From NCBI GenBank assembly GCA_963833225.1, contig CAWHXD010000017.1, positions 328,955 to 392,954 on the forward strand: 64,000 nt of DNA. The letters run 5' to 3'. Origin of the DNA: an uncultured Chloroflexia bacterium. GTDB taxonomy: Bacteria; Chloroflexota; Limnocylindria; Limnocylindrales; CSP1-4. The notes below the pieces were generated by a model that saw nothing but the letters and a program-made list of their open reading frames with translations, searched no databases and had not been told where the DNA came from. This document shows, in pieces, positions 26,847 to 42,630 of this stretch. The translations under genes were made by a program, and so were the position numbers. How positions within the stretch are numbered: the first letter of the stretch is position 1; each line of letters opens with the position of its first letter.

Positions 26847-27782
26847 CTATCGCGGGAGCCGGGCCTCGGGGACGCCGGCCGCGCCCTCCCGCGCCTCGAG
26901 CAGCCCCTCGCGGGCCATCGCCAGCACCGACTCGCGCACGGCTCCCGCGGGGTGATCGCCGATCGCGTCGTCGTACACGACCCACGTCCCGTCGCCGGCG
27001 TCGCGCGCCAGCTCCAGGATCCGGCCGCGGAGCCAGCGGCGCGTGGACGGGAACGCGGGCTCCGGCCGGCGGCGCGGGGCGGTGCCGACCGCATCGGCGG
27101 GCGGCCGCGCGCCCGCCGCATAGCGGCACCACGCGATGACCGGGCAGTCGGCGCAGCGCGGCCTCGACGGCCGGCACAGGCGGGCGCCCAGGTCCATCAG
27201 CGCGTGGGTCCAGGCACCCGGCCGGTCGGGTGGGACGGCGGCATCGGCGAGCGCCTGCATCGCGGCCACGGAGTACGCCTCGGGCCCACCCGCCGCGATC
27301 CGCCCCAGGACGCGACGGACGTTGGTGTCGACCGCCCCGGCCGGCGTCCCGAACGCGATCGCCGCTACCGCCCGCGCCGTGTACGGACCCACGCCCGGCA
27401 GCCTCTCGAGCGCGTCCACCGACGACGGCACGACGCCCGAGTGATCACGCACGATCGCCTGGGCCGTCCGGTGCAGGTGCACGGCCCGCCGGTTGTAGCC
27501 AAGCCCGGCCCACGCCCGGACCACCTCCGCGACAGGCGCAACCGCCAGGTCGCGAACGGTGGGCCAGCGAGCCATCCACGCGGTCCAGGCCTCGGCCGCC
27601 CGCTCTGCCTGGGTCTGCTGGGCCATCAGCTCCGACACGAGGACCGAGTACGGGTCCGCGCTGGCCCGGAAGGCGAGCTGGCGCCCGGTGGCGTCGTACC
27701 ACGCCAGGAGGGCGTCGCGAGCGTCGGTTGGCAGCGGGTCGACGGCGGGCAGCGGGTCGACGGGCGGTGTGGGGTCGGTCAC
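26847..27782 (-). CDS. mutY: A/G-specific adenine glycosylase (short form)
   Basis: VSELMAQQTQ, WAGLGYNRRA, HhH LPGVGPYTA, VDTNVRRV, FeS motif C-X6-C-X2-C-X5-C. Confidence 0.93.
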   Translation of the reverse strand: MTDPTPPVDPLPAVDPLPTDARDALLAWYDATGRQLAFRASADPYSVLVSELMAQQTQAERAAEAWTAWMARWPTVRDLAVAPVAEVVRAWAGLGYNRRAVHLHRTAQAIVRDHSGVVPSSVDALERLPGVGPYTARAVAAIAFGTPAGAVDTNVRRVLGRIAAGGPEAYSVAAMQALADAAVPPDRPGAWTHALMDLGARLCRPSRPRCADCPVIAWCRYAAGARPPADAVGTAPRRRPEPAFPSTRRWLRGRILELARDAGDGTWVVYDDAIGDHPAGAVRESVLAMAREGLLEAREGAAGVPEARLPR

Positions 27783-27800
27783 CCTGCCAAGGGTACGGAA

Positions 27801-28779
27801 CTAGGCGTCGAAGCGGACGGCGAGATAGCCCACCGTCCGGTCGGGCGGGCCGCCGGCATCGGCCGAGGTCGAGGCCGCGAGCAACGTCCCGCGCGACGCC
27901 CCCATGGCCCGCAGCGCCGCCAGCCCGAGAACGGCGGGCTCGATCCCGCACATGCCGCAGGCGACGCCCCGGATGCCGGCGACGCCGGCATCGCGAACCG
28001 CCGCCTCCTCGCGCGGCGAGCCGGACGGGATCGACCGCCGCGATCGCCGGCCACAGCCGCTCGGTCACGGCCTCGCACGCCGCGGCCGCTGGGTAGTGCG
28101 CCATGTCTGAGCTGATCGCCAGCACGACCGTGTCCCCCGCGTGCCGCCGGGCTGCCAGCAGCCTGCCGAGCCGCTCCCCCGCTTCGACCGCTCGCTCTCC
28201 CGTGCCGGATGCGACCGCGAGGGCCACAATCCTGGCGCCCGGCGACGCGACGGCCAGCAGCGGCAGCTGGACCTCGATCGAGTGCTCGCCGATGTGGGCA
28301 GCTGGGTCGGCCGTGAACGGCTCGCCGAGCGCGACCACCTCGGTGGTGAGGGCGTGGTCCACCTGGACCAGGTCCGCCGGCGTGACCCACGGCCCGCGAT
28401 CCCAGGCCCCGATGCCGTCGAGCCAGCCCGCACCGTGGTTCGTGCCCAGGATCACGACGGTCAGGCCCGGGGCGACCGCGTCGTCGTCGGTCGCGGCGCC
28501 GGTGGCGGCATCGTCTTGGCCGGCATCGTCGTGCGCGGCCGGAGCCGGCAGGGTCGCCCACCCGGCGGCGGCCGGAACCCCCGAGTACACGAGCCCCGCG
28601 TGCGGGACGAGGAGCCCAAGGGGCGGCGCGGATGCCGCGGATCGGGCGCCGGGCAGCTGCGAGGCGGCCTCGTAGAGCGCGGCGACCAGCTCGTCGAGCT
28701 GCTCGGGGGACGATGGATAGAAGCTCCCGGCCACCGCCGCCGGCCGGACCGGCCCGTGGCTCGTGGCGGCGTCGCTCAT
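27801..28779 (-). CDS. amrB: AmmeMemoRadiSam system protein B (Memo family; frameshift near 28010)
   Basis: RPAAVAGSFYP, PHAGLVYSG, EHSIEVQLP, SSDMAHY; other frame continues MCGIEP..TVGYLAVRF-stop. Confidence 0.9.
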
Positions 28780-29831
28780 GGCCGCGCTCGCTCCCAGATA
28801 CCCTCGATCACTCGACCGCAGCCCGGGCACCGGCCCCCCGCCTCCAGGCGCGAACGCGCCCGGTACCCACGCCGCTCCACGACGACGAGCTCACACCCCG
28901 GGCAGCGCGTGTCCTCTCGCCCGAGCTCGGGCGCATTGCCCACGTAGACATAGCGGAGGCCGGCCTCACGGCCGATCTCGGCCGCCCGGAGCAGCGTCGC
29001 TGGCGGCGTCGGGGGGACATCCGACATGCGGTAGGCGGGGTGGAAGCGCGAGACGTGCCATGGCACCCCGGGTCCCAGCCGTTCCACGATCCACTCGGTC
29101 AGCGCCCGCAGCTCCGCGTCGGAGTCGTTGTGCCCCGGGATCACGAGGGTCGTCAGCTCCAGCCAGGTGCCCGCCGCGTGGTACGCCTCGATCGCCTCGA
29201 GCACGTGGGCCAGGCGCGCCCCGCACAGGCGCCGGTAGAAGGCGTCGTCGAAGCTCTTGAGGTCCACGTTGGCCGCGTCGAGCACCCCCGCCAGCAGCCC
29301 GACCGCCTCCGGCGTCGCGTAGCCATCGGTCACGAACAGGTTGCGCAGGCCGGCGCCGCGGGCCAGCCGCCCGACGTCGAGCGCGTACTCCAGGAACACG
29401 GTGGGCTCGACGTACGTGTAGGCGATCGAGGTCGCGCCCGCCCGCTGGGCCTCGGCCACGACCGCGGCCGGCGACATCGGCCGCTGCTCCAGCTCCATGC
29501 CCAGCCGGGGTGCCATCGCGAGCTCCCAGTTCTGGCAGAAGGTGCAGTGGAAGGGACAGCCCGGCGTGGCGATCGAGTACGCGAGCGAGCCCGGGTCGAC
29601 GTGGAACAGCGGCTTCTTCTCGATCGGGTCGATGCCGAGGGCGGCGATCGCGCCGTACGCCTCGCACCACAGGGTCCCGCCGCGGTTCTCCCGGACACCG
29701 CAGATCCCGCGGCGGCCGTCGCGGACCAGGCAGCGATGCGCGCACGTGGCGCACCGGACCGCGCCGTCATCGGCCGGCGTCGCGAGGAGCGTCGGGACGG
29801 GCGCGGGGTGCGAGGTGGTCCGGGTCGCCAT
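28776..29831 (-). CDS. amrS: AmmeMemoRadiSam system radical SAM enzyme
   Basis: CATCAHRC..GICGVR, DPIEKKPLFH, GCPFHCTFCQNW, RFHPAY, YVYVGN, TRCPGC. Confidence 0.95.
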   Translation of the reverse strand: MATRTTSHPAPVPTLLATPADDGAVRCATCAHRCLVRDGRRGICGVRENRGGTLWCEAYGAIAALGIDPIEKKPLFHVDPGSLAYSIATPGCPFHCTFCQNWELAMAPRLGMELEQRPMSPAAVVAEAQRAGATSIAYTYVEPTVFLEYALDVGRLARGAGLRNLFVTDGYATPEAVGLLAGVLDAANVDLKSFDDAFYRRLCGARLAHVLEAIEAYHAAGTWLELTTLVIPGHNDSDAELRALTEWIVERLGPGVPWHVSRFHPAYRMSDVPPTPPATLLRAAEIGREAGLRYVYVGNAPELGREDTRCPGCELVVVERRGYRARSRLEAGGRCPGCGRVIEGIWERARP

Positions 29832-29958
29832 GGCCTTCGCCCAGTGTCACCCAGGGACGGCGCCGGCCCCAGTGCCGCCCGGTCCGGAATCGGGGCGTTC
29901 GGACCCTGCCATGGGGCGGCCGTCCGCGCGAGGATCACGGTGGACGGAGGTTCCTGCC

Positions 29959-30567
29959 ATGCCGAACCAGCCCGACACCCCCATCGCGCCGGGGGGTCCC
30001 GCCGCCGTGGAGCTCTCGAGCGCGGAGCGATCGCGCCTGCTGGAGCTCGCCAGGACGGCCGTCGCGGTCGCCGTTGGCGCCCGGCCCCGGGAGGAGCTGC
30101 AGACGCTGGTCGATACCGGGCCGCGCCCTGCCCTGCGCGCGGGCGCGTTCGTCACCCTGACCGAGGATGACCAGCTGCGCGGATGCATGGGCCGGCTCGA
30201 CGACGGGCAGCCGGCCTGGGTCTCGGTGGTCGAGGCGGCCCGGCTGGCGGCGCTCGGGGACCCGCGCTTCGGCGCCGTCACGCATCGCGAGCTGCCGCGG
30301 CTCCACCTGGAGGTCTCGGTGCTGGGGCCGATGGAGCCGCTGTCGGACCCCGCGGCGTTCCGGCCCGGGACCGACGGGCTCCTGATCTCGCGCGGCGGGC
30401 GCCGGGGGCTGCTGCTGCCCGAGGTCGCGGGGATGCTCGAGCCGCGCCACGACGCGATGCTCGATGCGGTCTGCCACAAGGCCGGCCTGCCGACGGATGC
30501 CTGGCGCGACCCGCAGACCGAGCTGCTGGTCTTCCGGACCTGCCGGTTCGGCGGTTCCGCGGCCTGA
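29959..30567 (+). CDS. amrA: AmmeMemoRadiSam system protein A (AMMECR1 domain)
   Basis: GAFVTL..LRGCMG, DPRF, EVSVL, GLLLPEV, CHKAGL; GGAGG RBS. Confidence 0.93.
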   Translation: MPNQPDTPIAPGGPAAVELSSAERSRLLELARTAVAVAVGARPREELQTLVDTGPRPALRAGAFVTLTEDDQLRGCMGRLDDGQPAWVSVVEAARLAALGDPRFGAVTHRELPRLHLEVSVLGPMEPLSDPAAFRPGTDGLLISRGGRRGLLLPEVAGMLEPRHDAMLDAVCHKAGLPTDAWRDPQTELLVFRTCRFGGSAA

Positions 30568-30629
30568 GCTGGGCGCATCCCCGGTCCACCGGCGGCCGTA
30601 CCATGGCCCGACGCATGGAGGAGTCCACG

Positions 30630-31553
30630 GTGACGCGGTTCGGAGCCGCCTTCTGGGCGCAGCACACGGGCTGGCCCGAGCTACGGGATGCCGTGCTGCG
30701 GGCGGAAGCCGCCGGCTTCGACGACCTGTGGATCGACGACCACCTCCTGTCCGACGAGGCCCAGTCGCCCGATCCCAAGCTCGAGGGCTGGACGGCGCTC
30801 GCGGCCATCGCCGCGGTGACCACCCGGGCGCGGGTGGGGCACATGGTCGTCGCCAACACGTTCCGCAACCCGGGTCTCACCGCCAAGATGGCCACCACCG
30901 TGGACCACGTTTCCGGTGGGCGGTTCGTGCTCGGCCTGGGCGCCGGGTGGTTCGAGCGGGAGCACGAGGCGTTCGGCCTCGACTTCGGGAGTGGCGTGGG
31001 CGAGCGGCTCGACCGGCTGGGAGAGGCCGTGCCGCTGATCCGCCGCCTGCTGGACGGCGAGACGGTCACCCACGAGGGCCGGTTCTACGCGTTCCGCGAC
31101 GCCATCTGCGCCCCGCGCCCCGTGCAGCCGCACCTCCCGATCCTCATCGGCGGCGCCGGCCCCAGGAAGACGCTGCCGCTGGTTGCCCGGTATGCCGACC
31201 TGTGGAACACGTACGGGACCCCCGCTGAGCTCGCCGCCCACGACGCCAACCTGCGTGCCTCCTGCGAGGCTGCCGGGCGTGACGAGCGGGAGATCGAGCG
31301 CACGGTCAACGTCAACATCGTGATCCGCGAGACGCGCAAGGCGGCCGAGCGGGCATGGTCCGGGTGGGCGGCCGTCCACCGGCCGCAGGACGGCGAGGAC
31401 CGGTTGTCGGCGGCGGGCACGGTCGAGGAGGTGGCCGAGGCACTCGCCCGTTACCAGGCGGTGGGGTTCGCGCACCCGGTGCTGGTGTTCCGGACGCCGT
31501 GGGACCTCGAGACGATGGACCGGCTGCCGGAGCTGCGGGCGGCGCTGGGCTGA
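30630..31553 (+). CDS. LLM class (probably F420-dependent) oxidoreductase
   Basis: GFDDLWIDDH, EGWTALAA, FRNPGLTAKMATTVDHVSGGRFVLGLGAGW, PILIGG; GTG after GGAGGAG. Confidence 0.9.
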   Translation: MTRFGAAFWAQHTGWPELRDAVLRAEAAGFDDLWIDDHLLSDEAQSPDPKLEGWTALAAIAAVTTRARVGHMVVANTFRNPGLTAKMATTVDHVSGGRFVLGLGAGWFEREHEAFGLDFGSGVGERLDRLGEAVPLIRRLLDGETVTHEGRFYAFRDAICAPRPVQPHLPILIGGAGPRKTLPLVARYADLWNTYGTPAELAAHDANLRASCEAAGRDEREIERTVNVNIVIRETRKAAERAWSGWAAVHRPQDGEDRLSAAGTVEEVAEALARYQAVGFAHPVLVFRTPWDLETMDRLPELRAALG

Positions 31554-31657
31554 GCCCCCGGGGGTCCGTTGCCGCAGCCCGGTTGACGGGAGTCGCGGCG
31601 CGGGACGCCACGGCGGGCGGCATCCGATGGCGCGCCGACGTGCGCCACGGCCACGTC

Positions 31658-33118
31658 TCAGACGGGAGCCACCAGGCCCTCGGCCTCCGCGCCGGTACCC
31701 AGCCACTCCCGGGTCCGGATCGCAGCCGCGAGTCCCTGGGTGACGCAGTCGGGCAGCCCGACGCCCCGGTACGAGGCGCCCGCGACCGTCACCGCGGGCC
31801 ACGCGGTCATCGCAGCCTCGATCGCGGCTATCCGGTCAAGGTGCCCCACCGTGTACCGCGGCATGGCGCCGTCCCAGCGCGAGACGCGCACCAGGAGCGG
31901 CTCCGCGGCGACACGCAGGGTCCCCTCCACCTCTGCCCGGGCGGCCGCGATCAGGTCGGGCTCAGAAAGGGTGGTGGCGCTGCCCTCGTCACGCACGAAC
32001 ATCCGGACCAGGACCACATCGTCGGGGGCACGGTCCGGCCACTTCTCGGACGACCAGGTGCAGGCGGAGATCGGGCCGCCCTCCGATGCCGGGATGAGGT
32101 AGCCGTGGCCCACGAGCTCGCGGCTCACGTGCTCGCGCCGGTAGGCCAGCGTCACGAGGATCGACGTGCCGTGCGGGACCCCGCCGAGCGCCGCCGTCGC
32201 CCCCGGGACCTCGCCCTCGAGCAGGCGCGCGGCCACGGGCGCCGGCACGGCCAGGATCGCGCCGTCGAACCGGGCCAGCGACCCGTCCTCGAACCGGGCC
32301 GCGATCCCGGTCCCGGCGCGGCTGAGCGACCGGACCCCGAAGCCCGTCCGCAGCTCGGCTCCACCGAGCGTCAGCGAGCTCTCGAGCGCATCGACCAGCG
32401 TCCCCATCCCGCCGCGCAGCGACACGAACACACCCAGGGGCTTCGCAGCCGGGGCGTCCGCCGTGGCGGACGCCGCCGCCGCGGCCCGCTTCGCCGCCGC
32501 CTCGCGCATCGCCTTCCCGTCGGCCAGGCCCGCCAGGAGCAGGCTGCGGTGCTCGCGCTCGGCCGTCCGCAGCTGGGGCACGACCGCGTCGAGCGAGAGC
32601 TCGTCGATCGGGGTTCCGTACACGCCGCCCACGAGCGGCCCGGCGAGCCGGTCTACCAGGGGCGACCCCAGGCGGCGGCGCAGGAACGTGCCCACGGCGA
32701 TGTCGTCGACGGGGAGCTGCCGCGGCGAGACCACGTCCCTCGCCATCCGCAGCTTCTCCGACCAGGAGAACAGCCGCGTCCGGGCGAACGGCAGCACCTT
32801 CGTCGGCAGCACGAGCCCCAGCCCCTCGGGCATCGGCACGAGCTCGCCCCGGAGCCGGATGTAGACCGCACGCGGGTCCCGCGTGCCCACCAGCTCGGAG
32901 CCCAGCCCCAGCTCGCGGCACAGCGTCACCGCCGCCGGCCGGGTGGCCACGAACGAGTCCGGCCCCTGCTCCAGCACCAGCCCGTCCACGCGCTCCGTGG
33001 CGATCTTGCCGCCCAGGCGCGGGCCAGCATCCACGAGGGTGACGGGCACCCCATCGCGGGCGAGGGCGCGGGCGGCGGCGAGACCGGTGATCCCGCCGCC
33101 GATGACCAGGACGCTCAT
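31658..33118 (-). CDS. hemY: HemY-type proto/coproporphyrinogen oxidase
   Basis: GGGITGLAAA, LGGKI, EQGPDSF, SSEKWPDRAP, MPRYTVGH, GVGLPDCV. Confidence 0.93.
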   Translation of the reverse strand: MSVLVIGGGITGLAAARALARDGVPVTLVDAGPRLGGKIATERVDGLVLEQGPDSFVATRPAAVTLCRELGLGSELVGTRDPRAVYIRLRGELVPMPEGLGLVLPTKVLPFARTRLFSWSEKLRMARDVVSPRQLPVDDIAVGTFLRRRLGSPLVDRLAGPLVGGVYGTPIDELSLDAVVPQLRTAEREHRSLLLAGLADGKAMREAAAKRAAAAASATADAPAAKPLGVFVSLRGGMGTLVDALESSLTLGGAELRTGFGVRSLSRAGTGIAARFEDGSLARFDGAILAVPAPVAARLLEGEVPGATAALGGVPHGTSILVTLAYRREHVSRELVGHGYLIPASEGGPISACTWSSEKWPDRAPDDVVLVRMFVRDEGSATTLSEPDLIAAARAEVEGTLRVAAEPLLVRVSRWDGAMPRYTVGHLDRIAAIEAAMTAWPAVTVAGASYRGVGLPDCVTQGLAAAIRTREWLGTGAEAEGLVAPV

Positions 33119-33133
33119 GCCATCGACCGTGCG

Positions 33134-34321
33134 CTACGCCATCCCGTACTGGGGGGCGCGGCCGGACGGCACATACGGGCACAGCGGATCGGACTCGAGC
33201 GGGTCGCCGGTCCAGGCGTAGGCCCGGGCCCGCGAGCCGCCGCACACCCGCGCGAACTCGCAGGCGCCGCAGCGGCCCTTGAAGCCCTCGGGATTGCGGA
33301 GCCCCCGCATGACCTCGTGGTCGCGGTACAGGTCCACGATCGAGTCGGTGCGGACGTTCCCGAGCGGGATCGGCAGGAATCCGGACGGGTTCACGATGCC
33401 CTCGTGGTTGATGAACACGATGCCGTTGCCGTCGCGGATGCCGAATCCGCGGCCGACGGACGTGGTGAGGATCTCCTCGGGCGTCTTGCCCTCCACCTCC
33501 CACTCGCGGATCGCATGTCGGCGGTAGTGCGTGGCCTCGGTCGTCTTGACCTGGAACGGGGCGGTCCGCCCGAGGTCAAACAGCCAGGCGTTGAGCTTCT
33601 CGGACTCGCCCGGCGTGATCTCCTTGAGCGCGGAACCGCGGCCGGTCGTGATCAGCATGAACAGCGCCCAGCGCATCACGTCCATGCCGACGAGCAGCTC
33701 GTAGATCGCCGGCAGGTCCTCGAGGGTCTGGTCCGTGACCAGGGTGTTGACCTGGATCGGGAGGCCGGCGGCGCGGGCCCATTTCGCCGCCTGGAGGGTC
33801 TTGTCGAACGTTCCCTCGACCATTCGGAAGCCATCATGGCGCTCGGCGCTGGAGCCGTCGATGGAGAGGCTGATGTTCTGGATGCCGGCATCGCGCAGGC
33901 TCTCCAGGACCTCCTGGGTCAGCAGCGGGGTAGCGGCGGGCGCCAGCGAGGCGCCGATCCGCCGCTCCGTCGCGGCGCGGACGAGCTCATGGAGGTCGGG
34001 GCGATTGAGCGGGTCGCCACCCGTGAACACGACGTGCGGGTACGGCCGCCCGAACCTCGTGATCTCGTCGAGCAGCCGCTCGCCCTCGCGCGTGGTGAGC
34101 TCGAGCGGGTTGCGCTCGGCCATCGCGTCGGCGCGGCAGTGCCGACAGGCGAGGCCGCAGGCGAGCGTGGTCTCCCAGTACACCAGCATCGGCGCACGGT
34201 CGTAGACGTAGCCCTTGGCGCGGACGGCGCCAACCCCGGTGATTCCCGGGTGGCCGCCGGGGTGACCGCCCGGATGCCCGGAGGGCCGGCCGGCAGGAAC
34301 GGGATCGATGGTCGTGGTCAT
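33134..34321 (-). CDS. Radical SAM/SPASM protein (TIGR04053 / AhbD-NirJ-like)
   Basis: WETTLACGLACRHCRA, TGGDP, KTTEATHYRR, PSGFLP, CGACEF..CGGSRARAY..DPLC. Confidence 0.9.
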   Translation of the reverse strand: MTTTIDPVPAGRPSGHPGGHPGGHPGITGVGAVRAKGYVYDRAPMLVYWETTLACGLACRHCRADAMAERNPLELTTREGERLLDEITRFGRPYPHVVFTGGDPLNRPDLHELVRAATERRIGASLAPAATPLLTQEVLESLRDAGIQNISLSIDGSSAERHDGFRMVEGTFDKTLQAAKWARAAGLPIQVNTLVTDQTLEDLPAIYELLVGMDVMRWALFMLITTGRGSALKEITPGESEKLNAWLFDLGRTAPFQVKTTEATHYRRHAIREWEVEGKTPEEILTTSVGRGFGIRDGNGIVFINHEGIVNPSGFLPIPLGNVRTDSIVDLYRDHEVMRGLRNPEGFKGRCGACEFARVCGGSRARAYAWTGDPLESDPLCPYVPSGRAPQYGMA

Positions 34322-34339
34322 GGCAGTTCGCTCCTGGCC

Positions 34340-35263
34340 TCAGGCGGCGGTGACGGGGCGGAGGGACGCGGCCGCGATGTCGGCCAGGCCCGCGATGAAC
34401 GTCGGATCGGTGTTCATCGAGCGCGCGCGCTCGATGCGGATGCCCACATCGCGGGCCACGCCCTGGGCCTCGATGTCGATGTCGAACAGGACCTCCAGGT
34501 GGTCGGCAACGAAGCCGACCGGCCTGATCACCAGGCCGCGCACGCCCTCGGCGGCGAGGCGGCGGATCTCGACCAGGATGTCGGGTCCAAGCCACGGCTC
34601 ATCGGTGCGGCCGGCGCTCTGGAACGCGAAGTCGTAGTCGTCGATGCCCAGCTCGCGTGCAACCAGGGCGGCCGTCGCGGCCAGCTCGGTCGGGTACGGG
34701 TCGCCGTCGGCGAGCACCCGCGCCGGCAGGCTGTGGGCGGTGAACATGACCCGGACGCCGGCCGAGTCCTCGAACCGCCCGAGCGCCTCCCGTGCCGTCT
34801 GAGCGAGCGCCTCGATGAACAGGGGCTGGTCATGCCAGGAGGCCACGAAGTCCACGGTCGGGGCGTCGCCACCAAGCTCGGCGAGGGCGACGTCCACCGC
34901 ACGCCGGTAGCCCGCGGCATTGGACGACGCCTGCGGGGCGAGCGCGATCGCCGTGAAGTGCCGCACGCCGTCCGCGGCCATGCCCTTCACGATGTCCCCG
35001 ATCCGCGGCGCGATGTGCCGCATCCCGGCGTAGACGGGGACCGGCAGGCCTCGTGAGGCGAGCTCGAGGGCAAGCGCGGCCCGTTGCGCCTCCACGATGT
35101 GCGACAGGGGCGACCCGCCACCGATCGCGCGGTACCGATCCAGCAGCTCCTCGAGGAGGTGCGGCGGGGGCGGCGAGCCGCGGCGAATGTCGGTGTAGTA
35201 GGCCTCGACCTGGTCGAGCGAGTCCGGGGACCCGTAGGCCATGAGCAGGACGGCATCGGTCAC
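34340..35263 (-). CDS. hemH: Ferrochelatase (coproporphyrin-type)
   Basis: LMAYGSP, RYRAIGG, FTAHSLP, FQSAG..WLGPD, GFVADHLEVLFDID. Confidence 0.95.
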   Translation of the reverse strand: MTDAVLLMAYGSPDSLDQVEAYYTDIRRGSPPPPHLLEELLDRYRAIGGGSPLSHIVEAQRAALALELASRGLPVPVYAGMRHIAPRIGDIVKGMAADGVRHFTAIALAPQASSNAAGYRRAVDVALAELGGDAPTVDFVASWHDQPLFIEALAQTAREALGRFEDSAGVRVMFTAHSLPARVLADGDPYPTELAATAALVARELGIDDYDFAFQSAGRTDEPWLGPDILVEIRRLAAEGVRGLVIRPVGFVADHLEVLFDIDIEAQGVARDVGIRIERARSMNTDPTFIAGLADIAAASLRPVTAA

Positions 35264-36330
35264 TTGGTCGCTCCGTGGTCGTGGACCAGGTCCACGAGTC
35301 GCTTGAGGTGATCCGGGTCCGTTGCCGGCAGGACGCCGTGACCCAGGTTGAAGATGTGGCCGGGCCGGCGGTCATTCTCCGCCAGCACCCAGCGGGCCGC
35401 CTCCTCGACGCCCTCCCAGGGGCCCAGGAGGAGCACCGGGTCCAGGTTCCCCTGCACGGCGCGGTCGCCCACCAACCGCCGGCCCTCCGCAAGGGCGATC
35501 CGCCAGTCGAGGCCGATGACGTCGCCGCCGGCCTGCGCCTGGAGCGGCAGGATGCCGCCGGTCCCCACACCGAAGTGGGTGGCCGGGACACCGAGCGGTT
35601 CGATTCCCTCGAACAGCCGGCGCATCCACGGCCACAGGCGCCGCTCGTAGTCGAGCGGCGAGAGGCCCCCGACCCAGCTGTCGAAGACCTGGACGGCCTC
35701 GACACCGGCGGCCACCTGGGCTCGCAGGTAGGCGATCGTCGCGTCGACCAGCCGGTCGAGCAGCGCGGCCCACATCGCGGGTTCCGCATGCATCAGCCGC
35801 TTGGTCGTCACGAAGTCGCGCGACGGCCCGCCCTCGACGAGGTAGCAGGCGAGCGTGAACGGGGCGCCCGCGAAGCCGATGAGCGGCACCGGCGACTCGG
35901 CACGGATGAGCCGGATCGCGTCCAGCAGGGACGCCACGGCCTCGTCCGGGTCGAACGCGCGCAGCGCCTCCACGTCCGCCATCGTCCGGATCGGCCGCTC
36001 GATGACCGGGCCACGGCCCTCCACGATGTCGAAGCCCACGCCGAGCCCGGCAAACGGGGTCGTGATGTCGGCGAACAGGATCGCGGCGTCCACGCCCAGC
36101 CGGCGGACGGGCTGGAGCGTGACCTCGGCGCACAGGGCCGGGTCGCGGGTGATCTCGAGCAGGGTCGCGTGCTCGCGGATGGCGCGGTACTCGGGCAGCG
36201 CCCGGCCGGCCTGGCGCATGAACCAGACCGGCGTGGTGTCCACCGGCAGGCCGTGGGCCGCGCGGAGGTAGCGCGCCTCGGGACGGGGAGCCGGCACCTG
36301 ACCGCCGACGGGTGCGACCTCGGTCGTCAT
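35260..36330 (-). CDS. hemE: Uroporphyrinogen decarboxylase
   Basis: PVWFMRQAGR, AAILFADI, GFAGAPFTL, QGNLDP, FNLGHG. Confidence 0.97.
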   Translation of the reverse strand: MTTEVAPVGGQVPAPRPEARYLRAAHGLPVDTTPVWFMRQAGRALPEYRAIREHATLLEITRDPALCAEVTLQPVRRLGVDAAILFADITTPFAGLGVGFDIVEGRGPVIERPIRTMADVEALRAFDPDEAVASLLDAIRLIRAESPVPLIGFAGAPFTLACYLVEGGPSRDFVTTKRLMHAEPAMWAALLDRLVDATIAYLRAQVAAGVEAVQVFDSWVGGLSPLDYERRLWPWMRRLFEGIEPLGVPATHFGVGTGGILPLQAQAGGDVIGLDWRIALAEGRRLVGDRAVQGNLDPVLLLGPWEGVEEAARWVLAENDRRPGHIFNLGHGVLPATDPDHLKRLVDLVHDHGATK

Positions 36331-37595
36331 GCGTCGAACGCCCGACGGGCGGCCGCCACGGTCGCCGCGATCTCCACGGAACCGTGGGCCGCGCCGATGA
36401 ACCAGGCCTCGAACTGCGACGGCGGGAGCAGGATCCCCTGGTCGAGCATCGCCCCGAAGAATCGGGCGTAGGCGTCGCGATCGGCGGCACCTGCCTCGGC
36501 CCAGTCGCGCGGGACCGCGGGCAGGAAGAACACCGTCAGCAGCGAGCCCACCCGCGCGATCGCCACTTCGCGACCGGCGGCCGCGGCGGCATCGCGCAGC
36601 CCCGCCTCGAGGTCCGCGCCGGCCTGCTCGAGCTCGTCGTACACGCCGGGTGTGAGCAGGTCGAGGGTGGCCGCGCCCGCGGCCATCGCCAGCGGATGCC
36701 CGGACAGGGTGCCAGCCTGGTACACGCCGCCCTCGGGGGCCACGTGCCGCATCAGGTCGGCGCGACCGCCGTATGCGCCAACCGGCATCCCGCCGCCGAT
36801 GATCTTGCCCAGCGTGGTGAGGTCCGGCGTCACGCCGTACCGCTCCTGCGCTCCACCCTTGGCGAGCCGGAACCCCGTGATCACCTCGTCGAAGATCAGG
36901 AGCGCGCCGCTGGCGACCGTGAGGTCGCGAAGGGTCTGGAGGAACCCGGCTGCCGGGGCGACGACGCCGATGTTGGCGGCAACGGGCTCCACGATCACGG
37001 CCGCCACCGCGCCTGGATGACGCTCGAAGACGCTCGAGATCGCCTCGGGATCGTTGTACGGGACGACGACCGTGTCGCGCGCCGCGGCGGCGGTCACGCC
37101 GGCCGAACCTGGCATCGCCAGCGTCGCGAGCCCGGAACCGGCCTCGACCAGGAGGCTGTCGCCGTGCCCGTGGTAGCCGCCCGCGAACTTCACGATCAGG
37201 TTGCGTCCGGTGGCGCCGCGTGCGAGCCGGATCGCGCTCATCACGGCCTCCGTGCCCGACGACGTGAAGCGCATCCGCTCCATCGAGGGCATCGCGGCGC
37301 GGATCCGCGTCCCAAGCTCCACCTCGAGCGGGCTGGTCGCTCCGAGGGCGAACCCGTTGAGGGCCGCCTCCCGGACGGCCTCGATCACCTCGGGTCGCCC
37401 GTGACCCAGGATGGCCGGCCCCCAGGAGCTGATGTAGTCGAGATACCAGGTGCCATCCGCATCACGCACACGCGGTCCTTGGCCGGCGTCGAGGATGAGC
37501 GGAGGCCGCCCGACGGAGCGGAACGCCCGAACGGGGCTGTTGACGCCACCCGGGAACAGCGACTCGGCGGTCTCCCGGAGCTGGGCCTGGGTCAT
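36327..37595 (-). CDS. hemL: Glutamate-1-semialdehyde 2,1-aminomutase
   Basis: PGGVNSPVRAF, SGTEAVM, FDEVITGFR, LGKIIGGG, YQAGTLSG, PPSQFE. Confidence 0.97.
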   Translation of the reverse strand: MTQAQLRETAESLFPGGVNSPVRAFRSVGRPPLILDAGQGPRVRDADGTWYLDYISSWGPAILGHGRPEVIEAVREAALNGFALGATSPLEVELGTRIRAAMPSMERMRFTSSGTEAVMSAIRLARGATGRNLIVKFAGGYHGHGDSLLVEAGSGLATLAMPGSAGVTAAAARDTVVVPYNDPEAISSVFERHPGAVAAVIVEPVAANIGVVAPAAGFLQTLRDLTVASGALLIFDEVITGFRLAKGGAQERYGVTPDLTTLGKIIGGGMPVGAYGGRADLMRHVAPEGGVYQAGTLSGHPLAMAAGAATLDLLTPGVYDELEQAGADLEAGLRDAAAAAGREVAIARVGSLLTVFFLPAVPRDWAEAGAADRDAYARFFGAMLDQGILLPPSQFEAWFIGAAHGSVEIAATVAAARRAFDA

Positions 37596-38638
37596 CAGCG
37601 GGCCTCCCGGGTCCAGGTCGCGAGGTCCGCGGCCGCGTAGGTGATCACGAACCCGGCGCCGGCCCGCAGGATGGACGTTGTGGCCTCGGTGAGGGCGCGG
37701 CGGCGATCCAGCCAGCCGCGCTCCGCGGCCGCCTCGATGGACGCATACTCGCCGCTCACCTGGTAGGCGCCAATCGGCACGTCGTACCGGGCCCGCGCGG
37801 CGGCCAGGATGTCGAGCGAGGGCAGCGCGGGCTTGACCAGAAGCATGTCCGCACCCTCGGCGATGTCCGCGTCCATCTCACGCATGGACTCGCGGGCGTT
37901 GGCCGGGTCCATCTGGTAACCGCGGCGGTCGCCGAACGAGGGGGCGGAGCCGGCCGCGTCGCGGAACGGCCCGTAGAACGCCGATGCGGTCTTGGCGGCG
38001 TAGGCAAGGATCGCCGTGTCCACGTGGCCGGCGGCATCGAGGCCGTCGCGGATCGCGGCGACCTGCCCATCCATCATTGCCGAGGGGGCGACGACGTCCG
38101 CACCACTCTCGGCCTGCGAGGCCGCCGTTCGCGCGAGCAGCTCGATGGTGGCGTCGTTGTCGACCCGGCCGCCGCGAGTGAGCGGGCCGCAGTGGCCGTG
38201 GTCCGTGTACTCACACAGGCAGGTGTCGGCGATGAGCACAAGGTCCAGGTCCGCGTCCCGGAACCGCCGCAGCGTCTCCTGGACGATCCCGTCGGCGACC
38301 CAGCCGCCAGTCCCGGTCGCGTCCTTGGTGGCCGGCAGACCGAACAGGATGATCCCGCCGATCCCAAGCGCCTCGAGCGCCCGGGCGTCCCGCAGGGCCT
38401 CGTCCGGCGTCACGCGCATCACACCGGGCATCGAGCCGACGGGCTCGCGCCCTTCGCGACCGGGCTGGACGAAGATCGGGGCGACGAGCTGGCGCGGGTG
38501 GATCCGCGTCTCGCGGACGAACGCCCGCAGCGGCTCGGTGCGGCGTGTCCGGCGCAGGCGATGCGCGGGGTCGGGCGCGAGCGTGCCGGCGCCGTTCGGG
38601 GCGGCAGGAACCATGGGACGGTCGAGGTCGAGGGTCAT
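37595..38638 (-). CDS. hemB: Porphobilinogen synthase (Zn-type)
   Basis: CLCEYTDHGHC, APSAMMDG, FYGPFRDA, VKPA, YQVSGEY. Confidence 0.97.
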   Translation of the reverse strand: MTLDLDRPMVPAAPNGAGTLAPDPAHRLRRTRRTEPLRAFVRETRIHPRQLVAPIFVQPGREGREPVGSMPGVMRVTPDEALRDARALEALGIGGIILFGLPATKDATGTGGWVADGIVQETLRRFRDADLDLVLIADTCLCEYTDHGHCGPLTRGGRVDNDATIELLARTAASQAESGADVVAPSAMMDGQVAAIRDGLDAAGHVDTAILAYAAKTASAFYGPFRDAAGSAPSFGDRRGYQMDPANARESMREMDADIAEGADMLLVKPALPSLDILAAARARYDVPIGAYQVSGEYASIEAAAERGWLDRRRALTEATTSILRAGAGFVITYAAADLATWTREAR

Positions 38639-40353
38639 CGGGCTCCTCCGAAGGCGGGGGTGGGGTCGAGGTCGGGATCGGTGGTCGGGGGAACAGGCGG
38701 CGCGCCGACCGCCCGCGCGGTGAACACGGCGAGGGATGCGGCATCCGGAGCGGGCGCCACGTGCACGGACCTGAAGCCGGCGGCGGCCGCAACCTGGGCC
38801 GTCCGTGCCCCGGCGGCGATCAGCGGCGTGGCCAGCATCGCCGACCGGGACCGATCCTCGGCCAGCTCCAGGAGGCCGCGGGCGGTCGAGCCGCTGGTGG
38901 CAACGATCACGTCGGGCGCTCCGTCATCGAGCGCCGCGGCAAGGATGGCACGGGACGACGATGGTGCCTCCACCGTCCGGTAGGCGATGGCCTCGGCCAC
39001 CTCGGCCCCGCGACCCCGCAGGACCGCGACCAGCGCCGGATCGGCGATGTCGCCGTGCGGGACGAGGATGCGGTCGCCCGGGGTGATCGGCAGCTCCACC
39101 GCGAGCGCCGCGGAATCGGCCACGCTTGGGGTGAAGATCCCTGCGAGACCCACGCCCCGCAGCACGACCGCCGTGGCATCGCCAACCGCGGCCCACCGGC
39201 AGGTGCCCGGATCGAGACGCAGGCGATCCATCGCCGCGATGGTGGCCGAGGCCGCGTTGGCGCTCGTGACGACGACGAGGTCACCCGGTCGGCTGGCGGC
39301 GACGACCTCGTCGAGGGGCCCGCCCGGGGGGGCGAGCACGATCTCGATCGCGGGAACGTGGACCGCGTCGACGCCAGCGGCGGCCAGCGCGGCGAGCAGA
39401 GGCCCTGCCTGGCCGGCCGGCCGGGCGACCAGGGCACGAGGCCGGGCCCGCAAGGTCACGATGCGCCCCGCCAGCCGCAGCGCGAGGTCGCGGCGCTCGG
39501 CCGTGGGCGCGGTGCCCCGGACCCAGGCGACCCTGGCACACGCGATCGTCGCGCCGGGCTCCGATACCCAGGCCCGCTCGGCAGCGGCGCCGAGCTCGAG
39601 CGTGTCGCCCCGGACGTGGCCGGTCGCGCCGATCGGCGACCGGCAGCCGCCGCCCGTGCCGTTGAGCAGCGCCCGCTCGGCCTCGATCGCGAACCGCGTC
39701 GCCGGATGGTCGAGCAGGCCGACCGCCTCGATCGCCTCGCCGTCGTCGGCACGAACCTGGAGCGCCAGCGACCCCTGCCCGGGTGCCCACGCCACGACGC
39801 TGGGCGGCAGGATGTCGTCGATGCGATCGGCTCGGCCGAGGCGGGTCAGCCCGGCGACGGCGAGGACGAGCGCGTCCGAATCGCCCCGATCGAGCTTGGC
39901 GAGCCGCGTGTCCACGTTGCCGTGGAGCGGGTGGAGCTCCAGGTCGGGGCGGATCGCTCGGAGGAATGCGACCCGGCGCGGGCTGTCGGTGCCGACCCTG
40001 GCGCCGGTGGGCAGCGTCGCCAGGGTCGTCCCCCGCTCGCGACAGACGAGGGCATCGCGCGGGTCCTCGCGTGGCGGGTAGGCGGCAATCCGGAGCAGCG
40101 GATGCTCATCGGTCGGGACGTCCTTGGCCGAGTGGACGGCGAGGTCCACCGTCCCGTCGAGCAGCGCGCCGATGATCCGGCCCACGAAGGCGCCCTCACC
40201 CCAGGCGGTGTCGACCGGACGCTCGTCGCCCTCGGTGCGGATGACCGCGATCTCGGTCCCGATGCCGTGCTCGGCGAGGCGGGCGGCCGTCCAGCTGGCC
40301 TGGACGAGCGCGAGGGCGCTGCCACGGGTTCCGATGCGGAGGGTGCGGGTCAT
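38635..40353 (-). CDS. hemC: Fused hydroxymethylbilane synthase / uroporphyrinogen-III synthase (HemC-HemD)
   Basis: GTRGSALALVQ, HSAKDVP, REDPRD, GGGCRSPIG, then HemD motifs VTSANA, AVGDATA, AYRT, TSGSTAR in one frame. Confidence 0.9.
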   Translation of the reverse strand: MTRTLRIGTRGSALALVQASWTAARLAEHGIGTEIAVIRTEGDERPVDTAWGEGAFVGRIIGALLDGTVDLAVHSAKDVPTDEHPLLRIAAYPPREDPRDALVCRERGTTLATLPTGARVGTDSPRRVAFLRAIRPDLELHPLHGNVDTRLAKLDRGDSDALVLAVAGLTRLGRADRIDDILPPSVVAWAPGQGSLALQVRADDGEAIEAVGLLDHPATRFAIEAERALLNGTGGGCRSPIGATGHVRGDTLELGAAAERAWVSEPGATIACARVAWVRGTAPTAERRDLALRLAGRIVTLRARPRALVARPAGQAGPLLAALAAAGVDAVHVPAIEIVLAPPGGPLDEVVAASRPGDLVVVTSANAASATIAAMDRLRLDPGTCRWAAVGDATAVVLRGVGLAGIFTPSVADSAALAVELPITPGDRILVPHGDIADPALVAVLRGRGAEVAEAIAYRTVEAPSSSRAILAAALDDGAPDVIVATSGSTARGLLELAEDRSRSAMLATPLIAAGARTAQVAAAAGFRSVHVAPAPDAASLAVFTARAVGAPPVPPTTDPDLDPTPAFGGAR

Positions 40354-40367
40354 CAGGTGGCTACCCG

Positions 40368-41585
40368 CTACAGCGCGAACAGCGTGCGGGCGGCACGCTC
40401 GGCATCGCCCGAGCCGTCCTCGCGCAACACGACCAGCGGCTGGTGCAGCAGCCCCGCGACCAGGCGATGGCTCATCTGCTCGACCAGCTCGCGCTCGTTG
40501 TCGTCGAGCGCCAGGCGGCGGAACAGGCGATCCAACTCCTCGCTCCGGCGGCTCTCGGCGTGATCGGAGAGGGCCTGGATCGTCGGCACGCTGCCCCGCG
40601 ATCGCGCCCAGGCGCCCATGCTGAGCTCCGCCTGGTCGAGCGCCCGCTCGAAGCGGGTCCGGAGGCGCCTGGGCAGCAGATCCTGCGGGCTGCGGGCGAT
40701 GTCGTCGACCGATGTGTGGCGGGTACCGAGCGCGGCACGGGTCTCGGGGTCCAGGGCCGGCGGTGAGCTCAGGTCCACCACCGGCTGGCGGCCAGCGAGG
40801 AGCGCCTCTCGGGCGTCACTGGAGAGCGGCCACTCGGCGGCGATGGCCAGCAGGACCGCGTCGACGTCCGGGAGCGGCGCATCCGGCCCGAAGGCAGCGG
40901 GCTCGCCGCTCGCGTCATGGGCGAGCGCGGCAGCCCGGTCGCTGCTCCGATTGGCGACGAGCACCCGGGCCCCCTGGCGCGACGCCGCGAGCGCGCACAG
41001 CCGGGCCATTCGTCCAGCACCCACGACCAGCACCCGCTGGCCGAGGAGCGGGCCGATTGTCGGCACCACGCGGTCGAGCGCCAGGTCCGCAAGCGAGCGC
41101 GGCGGGCCCTCGCGCCACGACCTCGTCTCACGGCCCAGGTGCAGGGCGAGCTGGAACAGGCGCTCCAGCACGGGATGCAGCCCCAGGGCACTCGCCGCGT
41201 GGGTGCCGATCTCCACCGGGCACCGCTCGGCGCCAGGGACGCGACGATCCGAGAGGCACTCGCGAAGCTGGTGAAGGATCTGGTCCTCGCCGACCACGAC
41301 GCTGTCGAGGCCGGCGGCAACGGTGAACACATGCCGGGCGGCCGCGAGCCCCTCGAACCGTCGCCCACCCTCGGGGAGCTCCGGCACCACGAGTGCTCCT
41401 GGTCCTTCCGCGGCGTCGACGGCCGCGTACAGCTCAACGCGGTGACAGGTTCGCAGGAGGATCGTCCGCGGATCTCGCGCGAGCTCGGCCGCGGCGTCGC
41501 CAAACGCCTCCCGAGCTTCGCTGGGGACGGTGCGGGCGTGGGTCGTGAGCGCGATGAGGCCCAACTCGTTGCCGGGGACGGTCAC
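40368..41585 (-). CDS. hemA: Glutamyl-tRNA reductase (divergent)
   Basis: TCHRVELY, GLDSVVVGEDQILHQ, VGAGRMA, ANRS, LLHQP. Confidence 0.9.
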   Translation of the reverse strand: MTVPGNELGLIALTTHARTVPSEAREAFGDAAAELARDPRTILLRTCHRVELYAAVDAAEGPGALVVPELPEGGRRFEGLAAARHVFTVAAGLDSVVVGEDQILHQLRECLSDRRVPGAERCPVEIGTHAASALGLHPVLERLFQLALHLGRETRSWREGPPRSLADLALDRVVPTIGPLLGQRVLVVGAGRMARLCALAASRQGARVLVANRSSDRAAALAHDASGEPAAFGPDAPLPDVDAVLLAIAAEWPLSSDAREALLAGRQPVVDLSSPPALDPETRAALGTRHTSVDDIARSPQDLLPRRLRTRFERALDQAELSMGAWARSRGSVPTIQALSDHAESRRSEELDRLFRRLALDDNERELVEQMSHRLVAGLLHQPLVVLREDGSGDAERAARTLFAL

Positions 41586-41606
41586 GATGTGGCTCCAGTG
41601 GTTCGA

Positions 41607-42299
41607 TCAGGACGCGGTGGATCGAGCGGGACGGCGAGAGCGGCGGCGGTCGGCGAGCGAACCGGTCTCCCATCCACGAAGCGTCGCGAGCAGGAGGCCG
41701 TCGAGAGCCGCGTTGGCCTCGGCCATGAGCGTGGACGTGGCGGCCGCATCGAACTCGCGCCGGCGCGCCAGGGCGCCGAGCTCCGCGACGAACGGGCGAC
41801 GGAAGCGGAGGAACAGGTCAGCGGTCATCGGGGCGCCGAGGCCCTCTCGGCCGGCAACACGTCCGTACTCGGCGCAGGCGTCCTCGGCCTCGCGCAGGCG
41901 GCTGGCTCGAACGGCGGGATCCTGCGTGTCCAGGGCGCCGACAAGGGCGGTGACGACCCCCCGGCCGTAGCCCCGGAATCGCTCCCGTTGTCCCGGATCC
42001 AGCTCTGCGACCCAGGGGATGCGACCCGGGTCCTCGCTGGTCGCACGCCGGTAGCCTCGGGCCATCCGGCCCGGGGTCTCCCCGAGGTCACCGAGCGAGG
42101 GGCGATCCGCCGGCTCGGCGGGCAACAGGGCCAGGAGGCCGGCACGGGAGAAGCGGCGATGGCCGCCCGGCGTGACGAAGGTCCGCACGAGGCCGGCGTC
42201 GGCCCAGCGGCGAATGGTGGACGGCGAGACGCCCAGGAGCTCGCGTGCTCCAGTCAGCGACACCCACTCCGGATCCGTTGTGCTCGTCTTTTCGACCAT
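41607..42299 (-). CDS. BldC/excisionase-like MerR-family HTH regulator with uncharacterised helical C-terminal domain
   Basis: ARELLGVSPSTIRRWADAGLVRTFVTPGGHRRF; first gene of heme operon. Confidence 0.85.
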   Translation of the reverse strand: MVEKTSTTDPEWVSLTGARELLGVSPSTIRRWADAGLVRTFVTPGGHRRFSRAGLLALLPAEPADRPSLGDLGETPGRMARGYRRATSEDPGRIPWVAELDPGQRERFRGYGRGVVTALVGALDTQDPAVRASRLREAEDACAEYGRVAGREGLGAPMTADLFLRFRRPFVAELGALARRREFDAAATSTLMAEANAALDGLLLATLRGWETGSLADRRRSRRPARSTAS

Positions 42300-42310
42300 G
42301 CGGATCGACG

Positions 42311-42356
42311 AAATCTCCCAAATCTCCCAAATCTGTCCGAAGACTCTCTCATCCTA
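42311..42356 (-). promoter_or_regulatory. -10 element (TAGGAT) and three 9-bp direct repeats, candidate operator
   Basis: Plus strand AAATCTCCC AAATCTCCC AAATCTGTC at 42311-42337; ATCCTA at 42351-42356. Confidence 0.55.
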
Positions 42357-42630
42357 TCGGTCGATGGAGGAGGTGTAGGGAGGGCCGGGCGGCCCGCTGT
42401 CGGTCCCAATGGTCCCGGAATGGGCTCGTCAGCTATGCCCACGCGGCGGCCCGAATCGGGGTATTCCCGGCGCGATTCACCCAGGTTCGGGACGGCGGGG
42501 GCCTGGCGCCACCCGGCGCGCGGCTGCGGGACGCAATCCCTTTATCCCGCCAAGCAGGTGACCTTGGTCCCTGCCATCAACCTTGAGCCGATCTCCTGCG
42601 TGCATGTCCCCCGCGACCGTCACCTCGGTG

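Follow-up and report, generated by a model that had tools for sequence, protein, structure and literature searches.

The last step of heme b synthesis in bacteria that use the coproporphyrin pathway is usually assigned to the peroxide-requiring enzyme ChdC, and genome-based predictions of a radical S-adenosylmethionine (SAM) alternative to ChdC go back about ten years. The locus described here raises the question of which enzyme completes heme b when a heme operon contains a radical SAM gene and no chdC. It lies in a stretch of 64,000 nucleotides (hereafter the window; G+C content 72%) from an uncultured Chloroflexia bacterium of the lineage Limnocylindria, Limnocylindrales, CSP1-4, namely positions 328,955–392,954 of contig CAWHXD010000017.1 in the assembly GCA_963833225.1. 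The nearest relatives of its proteins carry the names Candidatus Limnocylindrales or Chloroflexi, in agreement with an uncultured Chloroflexota bacterium of the Limnocylindria type. The operon is located on the minus strand in the order hemA-hemCD-hemB-hemL-hemE-hemH-[radical SAM]-hemY, and its neighbouring genes overlap by 1–4 bases or are 14–18 bases apart. This order, proposed in an earlier note made from the DNA letters alone, was confirmed by the open reading frames (ORFs) and their family matches:

40368–41585, minus strand: hemA, glutamyl-tRNA reductase; a divergent protein that does not reach the equivalog cut-offs but has all three Pfam domains.
38635–40353, minus strand: fused hemC-hemD, hydroxymethylbilane synthase (TIGR00212, 265 bits, residues 5–257) and uroporphyrinogen-III synthase (PF02602, residues 321–541).
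37595–38638, minus strand: hemB, porphobilinogen synthase (NF006762, 438.6 bits).
36327–37595, minus strand: hemL, glutamate-1-semialdehyde aminomutase (TIGR00713, 541 bits, cut-off 527).
35260–36330, minus strand: hemE, uroporphyrinogen decarboxylase (TIGR01464, 391.7 bits, cut-off 303).
34340–35263, minus strand: hemH, ferrochelatase of the CpfC type, belonging to the radical SAM-linked clade A (PF00762, 259 bits).
33134–34321, minus strand: radical SAM/SPASM-type protein of 395 amino acids (TIGR04053), candidate AhbD-type heme b synthase without the first auxiliary cluster (AuxI).
31658–33118, minus strand: hemY, CgoX-like coproporphyrinogen/protoporphyrinogen oxidase dependent on flavin adenine dinucleotide (FAD) (TIGR00562, 257.9 bits).

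The gene at 33134–34321 probably encodes an AhbD-type heme b synthase, which would decarboxylate coproheme independently of oxygen and belong to an AuxI-less subtype that corresponds to TIGR04053. Its family membership, motifs, operon context and co-occurrence with other genes point to this predicted substrate and chemistry, and to a presumed status as the sole enzyme of its kind in the genome.

In the comparison with NCBIfam, the radical SAM protein reached 453.2 bits against TIGR04053 (“BA_1875 family”, cut-off 395), with residues 40–385 aligned to model positions 3–366; the genome-wide profile search scored the same gene at 450.3 bits. The second-ranked family was AhbD (TIGR04545), with a full-length alignment at 296.3 bits, and NirJ2 (191 bits) and AhbC (154 bits) ranked lower, while HemN (TIGR00538) did not occur among the top 25 of its 50 listed families. 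A search of the assembly with TIGR04545 gave no match at E ≤ 1e-100. The two leading families intergrade: the representative P0194 scored 417 bits with TIGR04053 and 426 bits with the AhbD model, and P0234 scored 391.6 and 496.8 bits, respectively.

The protein contains seven cysteine residues, namely C55, C59 and C62, which form a CX3CX2C motif, and C351, C354, C360 and C381, which form a CX2CX5CX20C motif with a spacing of 20 residues between C360 and C381. Both motifs of all 39 AhbD sequences analyzed by Fix et al. 2023 (CX3CX2C and CX2CX5CX20-38C; PMC10452713) were thus found in it. According to the same source, the four extra AuxI cysteines occur only in the AhbDs of methanogens and sulfate reducers, and in the AhbDs of archaea other than methanogens three AuxI positions are taken by one Glu and two Ser. 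In the window protein, the AuxI positions are occupied by E262, I295, S313 and S363, and the full four-cysteine AuxI SPASM motif is absent. A cysteine table was compiled for this protein (P0001), 24 TIGR04053-type and 9 AhbD-leaning representatives and 16 named homologues. Cysteines were found at the positions equivalent to E262, I295, S313 and S363 in all 9 AhbD-leaning representatives. Among the 41 TIGR04053-type rows (P0001, the 24 representatives and the 16 named loci), Ser occupies position 363 in every row and Glu occupies position 262 in 37, both haloarchaeal rows included. The Glu/Ser/Ser pattern therefore makes the “missing cysteines” a hallmark of the AuxI-less AhbD subtype. The combined pattern used here (CX3CX2C, a single C-terminal CX2CX5C...C and Glu/Ser/Ser) was derived from the family members analyzed and is not itself a curated definition. 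The sequences PSGFLP (residues 312–317) and CGGSRARAY (residues 360–368), pointed out in the earlier note, are both present. The SPASM cysteines that it reported as missing are indeed lacking, but this is not an oddity of the protein, as it is the known AuxI-less AhbD pattern (PMC10452713).

Modeling of the protein from a 40-sequence alignment led to a structure with a predicted local distance difference test (pLDDT) score of 90 and a predicted template-modelling (TM) score (pTM) of 0.88. Its fold matches among the solved structures were SPASM/Twitch enzymes, namely SuiB (TM 0.67), anSME, PqqE, SkfB and BlsE; the sequence search of the PDB returned no AhbD structure, and the best match there was BlsE at 64.5 bits. 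Residues 1–36 (window 34210–34321), which lie outside the family model, form a His-, Pro- and Gly-rich extension with a repeated GHPG; they have a pLDDT below 50 and are predicted to be disordered. This extension is retained in homologues with 86–93% identity that cover 100% of the query. Some Joint Genome Institute records label homologues with 69–83% identity “AdoMet-dependent heme synthase”. Four TIGR04053-like representatives (P0241, P0253, P0255 and P0171) are missing one or two of the CX3CX2C cysteines and retain the C-terminal cluster motif, and may be pseudo-radical-SAM forms.

The family was described in the earlier note as poorly characterised, a view that does not hold for its haloarchaeal members. 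The homologues from Haloferacaceae (Halolamina and Haloplanus) share 49% identity with the window protein and reach 486–487 bits on TIGR04053 and only 330–339 bits on TIGR04545. Among 14 named control genomes, the TIGR04053 cut-off was passed in one, Haloferax volcanii, where the match is presumably HVO_2144. Kosugi et al. 2017 reported that the deletion of ahbD (HVO_2144) in H. volcanii leaves growth in air normal and leads to poor growth by denitrification or dimethyl sulfoxide respiration, with rescue by protoheme (PMC5746218). Judged by scores and motifs, TIGR04053 is the AhbD subtype without the AuxI cluster, haloarchaeal AhbD included. No paper using the term TIGR04053 was found in the literature search.

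A comparison with the AuxI-less archaeal AhbDs (H. volcanii HVO_2144 and those of Aeropyrum, Sulfolobus, Pyrobaculum and Halorubrum) indicated that they share the family, both motifs and Glu/Ser/Ser with the window protein, as well as the predicted conversion of coproheme to heme b. However, coproheme reaches the archaeal enzymes by the siroheme route (AhbA/B/C), whereas the window gene is located in a HemE/HemY/HemH operon and neither AhbA/B nor AhbC was found in the genome. In a tree built by a quick method, the bacterial clade that contains the window protein stands apart from the haloarchaeal one; the window protein clusters with Limnocylindrales, and the sister group of the two is Actinomycetota (support 99 by this method). 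The canonical AhbDs (TIGR04545; Methanosarcina barkeri and Desulfovibrio vulgaris) belong to the same superfamily, are the best characterised neighbours and have in common with the window protein the radical SAM motif, the motif of the second auxiliary cluster (AuxII) and the SPASM fold, with SuiB among the top structural matches as for the M. barkeri model (PMC10452713), but they have the four AuxI cysteines of which the window protein has none. ChdC (HemQ) has the same predicted substrate, product and position after CpfC, and its gene is often in one operon with the radical SAM gene; its chlorite-dismutase-like fold and use of H2O2 are unrelated to the radical SAM fold and chemistry.

The following pathway can be proposed. 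HemE would produce coproporphyrinogen III, HemY would oxidise it to coproporphyrin III, the CpfC-type HemH would insert iron to give coproheme, and the radical SAM enzyme would convert the propionates of rings A and B to vinyls, yielding heme b. By analogy with characterised AhbD, the cluster bound by C55, C59 and C62 would cleave SAM, CO2 would leave, and the remaining electron would exit via the heme iron and AuxII (C351, C354, C360 and C381), the sole remaining auxiliary cluster; two SAM would be consumed per heme, with a monovinyl intermediate. The coproheme decarboxylase acting after HemE, HemY and HemH that the earlier note suggested is still the best reading of the sequence, although neither the function nor the hybrid pathway is new. 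A hybrid in which AhbD completes the coproporphyrin-dependent (CPD) pathway has already been published as a prediction (PMC13564367, PMC10548856, PMC12670364): the last CPD step is given as ChdC or anaerobic AhbD in PMC12670364, and reviews describe ahbD beside hemY, hemH and hemQ. The position of the window gene between hemH and hemY agrees with the context by which PMC10548856 recognises an AhbD gene, namely ahbA/B/C or hemY/hemH. As for the hallmarks of the CPD pathway, a CpfC-type ferrochelatase with binders of propionates 2 and 4 is present and ChdC as the terminal enzyme is not.

Searches for other heme enzymes covered all 20 contigs of the assembly (3.89 Mb), which is 86% complete. ChdC (PF06778) gave no match, and a tblastn search with 8 ChdC sequences from relatives revealed no chdC remnant (best E 0.06). 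HemF (PF01218) and the siroheme decarboxylase AhbA/B (PF17805) gave no match either, and the one sub-cut-off match of HemN (TIGR00538) in the assembly is the chaperone HemW (TIGR00539, 207.4 bits, cut-off 205.4). A second AhbC/NirJ/AhbD-like gene was not found, the next TIGR04053 matches in the assembly being at 60 and 29 bits, nor was CgoN. The genome-wide check for chdC, hemN and hemF that the earlier note proposed therefore found none of them in this 86%-complete assembly. The assembly contains two genes of cytochrome oxidase subunit I (COX1), which indicates that the genome uses heme and oxygen. In this genome with aerobic oxidases, coproheme is probably decarboxylated by the radical SAM enzyme alone.

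For the class, one and the same sample of 201 genomes was searched for TIGR04053 above the cut-off, ChdC, ferrochelatase and HemY (E ≤ 1e-30). The genomes are related and not independent, and the counts are given without statistics; they take in 8 genomes flagged as unpublished, none of them among the holders of the radical SAM gene and 7 among the 70 ChdC-only genomes. TIGR04053 was found in 25 genomes, ChdC in 95, ferrochelatase in 101 and HemY in 28, and contig-end fragments of the TIGR04053 gene were found in 4 further genomes. Ferrochelatase is present in all 25 holders, and none of the 100 genomes without ferrochelatase has the TIGR04053 gene. HemY occurs in all 25 holders and in three of the four genomes with fragments; no ChdC-only genome, of which there are 70, has it at this threshold. 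The anti-correlation with chdC expected in the earlier note failed to appear, since ChdC was found in 19 of the 25 holders and in 76 of the 176 non-holders. Ten genomes contain ferrochelatase and lack ChdC: six of these carry the full radical SAM gene (the window genome, G062, G098, G023, G185 and G193), two carry fragments of it (G107 and G144), and the two with neither gene nor fragment have a completeness of 73% and 81%.

These counts bear on the possibility that the activity is as proposed but redundant, with chdC located in the unassembled 14% and the radical SAM enzyme serving as a low-oxygen back-up, as in most relatives. The incompleteness of the assembly would allow this, and ChdC accompanies the gene in 19 of the 25 holders and, within the genus, is present in 4 of the 7 further genomes. 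However, G062 (94% complete, 7 contigs) and G098 (95%, 9 contigs), which belong to the same genus and share the synteny, have no ChdC, and the same is true of G023 and G185 (both 95% complete). In addition, the site that holds chdC-hemH in G179 and G002 is occupied by other DNA in the window genome, and tblastn found no chdC remnant (best E 0.06). Redundancy of this kind is therefore rather unlikely.

The arrangement of genes in relatives supports a distinct place for the radical SAM gene. In the locus family f1, the complete order from hemA to hemY is kept in G179, G002, G062, G098, G038, G029, G146 and G185; hemE-hemH-[radical SAM]-hemY is kept in all 8 fetched f1 loci that span the operon, with chdC just outside the operon in 5 of the 8. 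In the family f3 (G004, G022, G031 and G040) the order is hemB-hemH-[radical SAM]-hemY-hemL-chdC-hemE, and in ChdC-only relatives it is hemB-hemL-chdC-hemE-hemH or hemB-chdC-hemL-hemE-hemH (including hemCD-hemB-chdC-hemL-hemE-hemH), so that f3 looks like an insertion of three genes, hemH-[radical SAM]-hemY, into the ordinary operon. In a set of 80 named loci from several phyla, 41 have further heme genes no more than 7 kb away; hemY adjoins the radical SAM gene in 30, and 17 of the loci include chdC. In Actinomycetota, the radical SAM gene is followed by hemY in 8 of 8 loci, and the order hemE-[radical SAM]-hemY-chdC-hemH was found in 7 of the 8. Since the radical SAM gene and chdC share operons in f3 and Actinomycetota, the gene does not occupy the “ChdC/HemQ slot” in which the earlier note had placed it.

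The phylogenetic analysis of ferrochelatases by the quick method revealed three clades, each with a support of 100 by that method. Clade A includes 18 rows, all of which adjoin the radical SAM gene except L107, where the gap is slightly larger. The class-typical clade includes 14 rows located at the end of chdC operons. The third clade (7 rows) unites Actinomycetota with the copies next to chdC in G179, G002 and L037 and suggests a transferred chdC-hemH pair. In the class, hemH, the radical SAM gene and hemY behave as one inherited three-gene terminal unit, which is new here. The chdC-adjacent ferrochelatase copies are located at L021 18649–19593, L022 14672–15631 and L037 9666, and the ChdC proteins of G179 and G002 score 226–229 bits, versus 164–168 bits for other ChdCs of the same genus (G053 and G188). 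In G179 (L021 12791–16790), the hemY match (174.7 bits) spans only model positions 128–466, with about 3 kb of extra DNA before the oxidoreductase gene, and this hemY may be disrupted or rearranged.

The substrate was considered through HemY and HemH. The best solved relative of the window HemY was the chain 3i6d (281.8 bits), presumably B. subtilis HemY. When the window HemH was compared with solved chains, B. subtilis-type chains and those named “coproporphyrin III ferrochelatase” scored 208–181 bits and human ferrochelatase scored 122 bits. In L. monocytogenes CpfC, the residues T14, Y46, S53 and Y124 form hydrogen bonds with propionates 2 and 4 of coproporphyrin (PMC9794026); S12, Y44, S51 and Y119 of the window HemH align with them, the CpfC numbering being carried over via the B. 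subtilis chain with a one-residue offset that was checked by residue types. The residues R27, R43 and Y10 are also kept. Given that the radical SAM enzyme acts in heme synthesis at all, coproheme is very probably its substrate, because HemH is CpfC-like and the haloarchaeal members act in a route that yields coproheme.

A different order of reactions can also be imagined, in which the radical SAM enzyme would convert coproporphyrinogen III by decarboxylation into protoporphyrinogen IX in the manner of HemN, HemY would oxidise this to protoporphyrin IX and HemH would form heme, beside the ChdC route where both occur. HemN/CgdH is itself a radical SAM enzyme and performs the same type of reaction, from propionate to vinyl, although it belongs to another radical SAM subfamily and its substrate is a metal-free porphyrinogen. 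The strict association of the radical SAM gene, HemY (28 of 201 genomes, all holding the gene or a fragment of it) and a dedicated HemH would fit such a route, as would the second ferrochelatase next to chdC in many holders. However, HemH retains the residues for binding propionates 2 and 4 of coproporphyrin and is closer to CpfC chains than to human ferrochelatase (208 versus 122 bits), the characterised AhbD, AhbC and NirJ act on iron tetrapyrroles in the published accounts available, one hemH and one hemY are common to the radical SAM gene and chdC in 7 of 8 Actinomycetota loci, and the haloarchaeal members, with 49% identity, belong to a siroheme route described as yielding coproheme. A HemN-like function is thus improbable. 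Other tetrapyrrole chemistry, such as AhbC/NirJ-like removal of side chains or modification of heme, with heme b completed by an unknown enzyme, is very improbable: AhbC and NirJ do catalyse different reactions on related substrates, and the bacterial members are known from sequence, but the AhbC and NirJ models score well below AhbD (AhbC 154 versus 296 bits), the substrate of AhbC/NirJ would not be made since AhbA/B was not found in the assembly, and the remaining genes of the operon are those of plain heme b synthesis.

Several points weigh against the assignment as an AhbD-type coproheme decarboxylase. The protein stays below the equivalog cut-off of the AhbD model TIGR04545 (EC 1.3.98.6; 296.3 versus 500 bits), and the backbone of the radical SAM tree is unresolved by the quick method. 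It is assumed that an AuxI-less enzyme completes both decarboxylations. The H. volcanii match was identified as HVO_2144 not from the record itself but because PMC5746218 lists ahbC and ahbD as such enzymes in that organism and AhbC has a model of its own. The literature search, which did not cover the original papers of 2015–2017, found neither an assay nor a mutant of a bacterial member of TIGR04053. With a completeness of 86%, chdC could be located in the missing part of the assembly. Finally, the cassette pairs the oxygen-requiring HemY with an oxygen-independent and probably oxygen-sensitive enzyme, and in many relatives the gene is in the same operon as chdC; both features fit poorly with a simple division of labour between aerobic and anaerobic enzymes.

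The other features at the borders of the operon are the following:

41607–42299, minus strand: MerR/BldC-like helix-turn-helix gene, 230 amino acids as called, domain at residues 17–59, immediately upstream of hemA; possible regulator of the operon.
27445–28830, minus strand: Memo-like gene.
28776–29831, minus strand: another radical SAM gene, which may form with the Memo-like gene an AmmeMemoRadiSam-type set.
29847–30665, minus strand: third ORF beside this pair, with no Pfam match.
28632–30170, plus strand: ORF of 512 amino acids, rejected as probably spurious, with no family match and with the Memo-like and radical SAM genes on the minus strand.

In relatives of the same genus, the region is conserved up to window position ~42333–42358. 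On the other side, a gene for an F420-type luciferase-like oxidoreductase, convergent with the operon, is located immediately downstream of hemY, and next to it lies a variable spot (window 27445–30621). This spot contains chdC-hemH in G179 and G002, nothing in G062 and, in the window genome and G098, about 2.9 kb of DNA with the Memo-like gene and the additional radical SAM gene. A scan of positions 31000–42800 for promoters and terminators gave no promoter-like and one terminator-like site, which is not above shuffled sequences. Among sequencing runs that contain the sequence, none of RNA was listed, and in all 10 DNA runs its share was 0.09 or less.

The genomes that contain ChdC alone were also considered. 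The relatives G015, G059, G152, G024, G030, G075, G016 and G010 (loci L116–L127) have an ordinary chdC-type operon, and neither HemY nor CgoN was found in these genomes. In the 8 good ChdC-only genomes searched for HemY at the default threshold, the best match (33.6 bits) was to the FAD-binding motif only, CgoN was found in none of the 11 genomes searched for it, these 8 included, and a scan of what lies downstream of hemH in four operons (G015, G152, G059 and G024) found no shared candidate oxidase. These ChdC-only relatives are thus without any known coproporphyrinogen oxidase. In G137, a genome of the window's own genus (93% complete, 4 contigs), ferrochelatase, ChdC, HemY and the radical SAM gene were all not found; heme auxotrophy may be common in the class, as ferrochelatase was not found in 100 of the 201 genomes.

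Besides the hemH-[radical SAM]-hemY unit, the few aerobic lineages that have this unit without ChdC and the ChdC-only relatives without a known coproporphyrinogen oxidase are new here. The class counts raise two questions, namely why genomes carry HemY, the radical SAM enzyme and a dedicated ferrochelatase as a set, and what oxidises coproporphyrinogen in the ChdC-containing relatives that have neither HemY nor CgoN. It may tentatively be suggested that in Limnocylindria the AhbD-type enzyme is more than an anoxic back-up for ChdC: it could be part of a self-contained module (AuxI-less AhbD, a CpfC lineage dedicated to it and a CgoX-like HemY) that is gained and lost as a unit and alone sustains heme b in aerobic ChdC-free lineages, and the ordinary ChdC operon, with its lack of a known coproporphyrinogen oxidase, would then point to an undiscovered enzyme. 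The locus brings no new idea of how heme b can be made; it is a clean natural test case, an aerobic lineage whose sole route to heme b apparently runs through the radical SAM enzyme.

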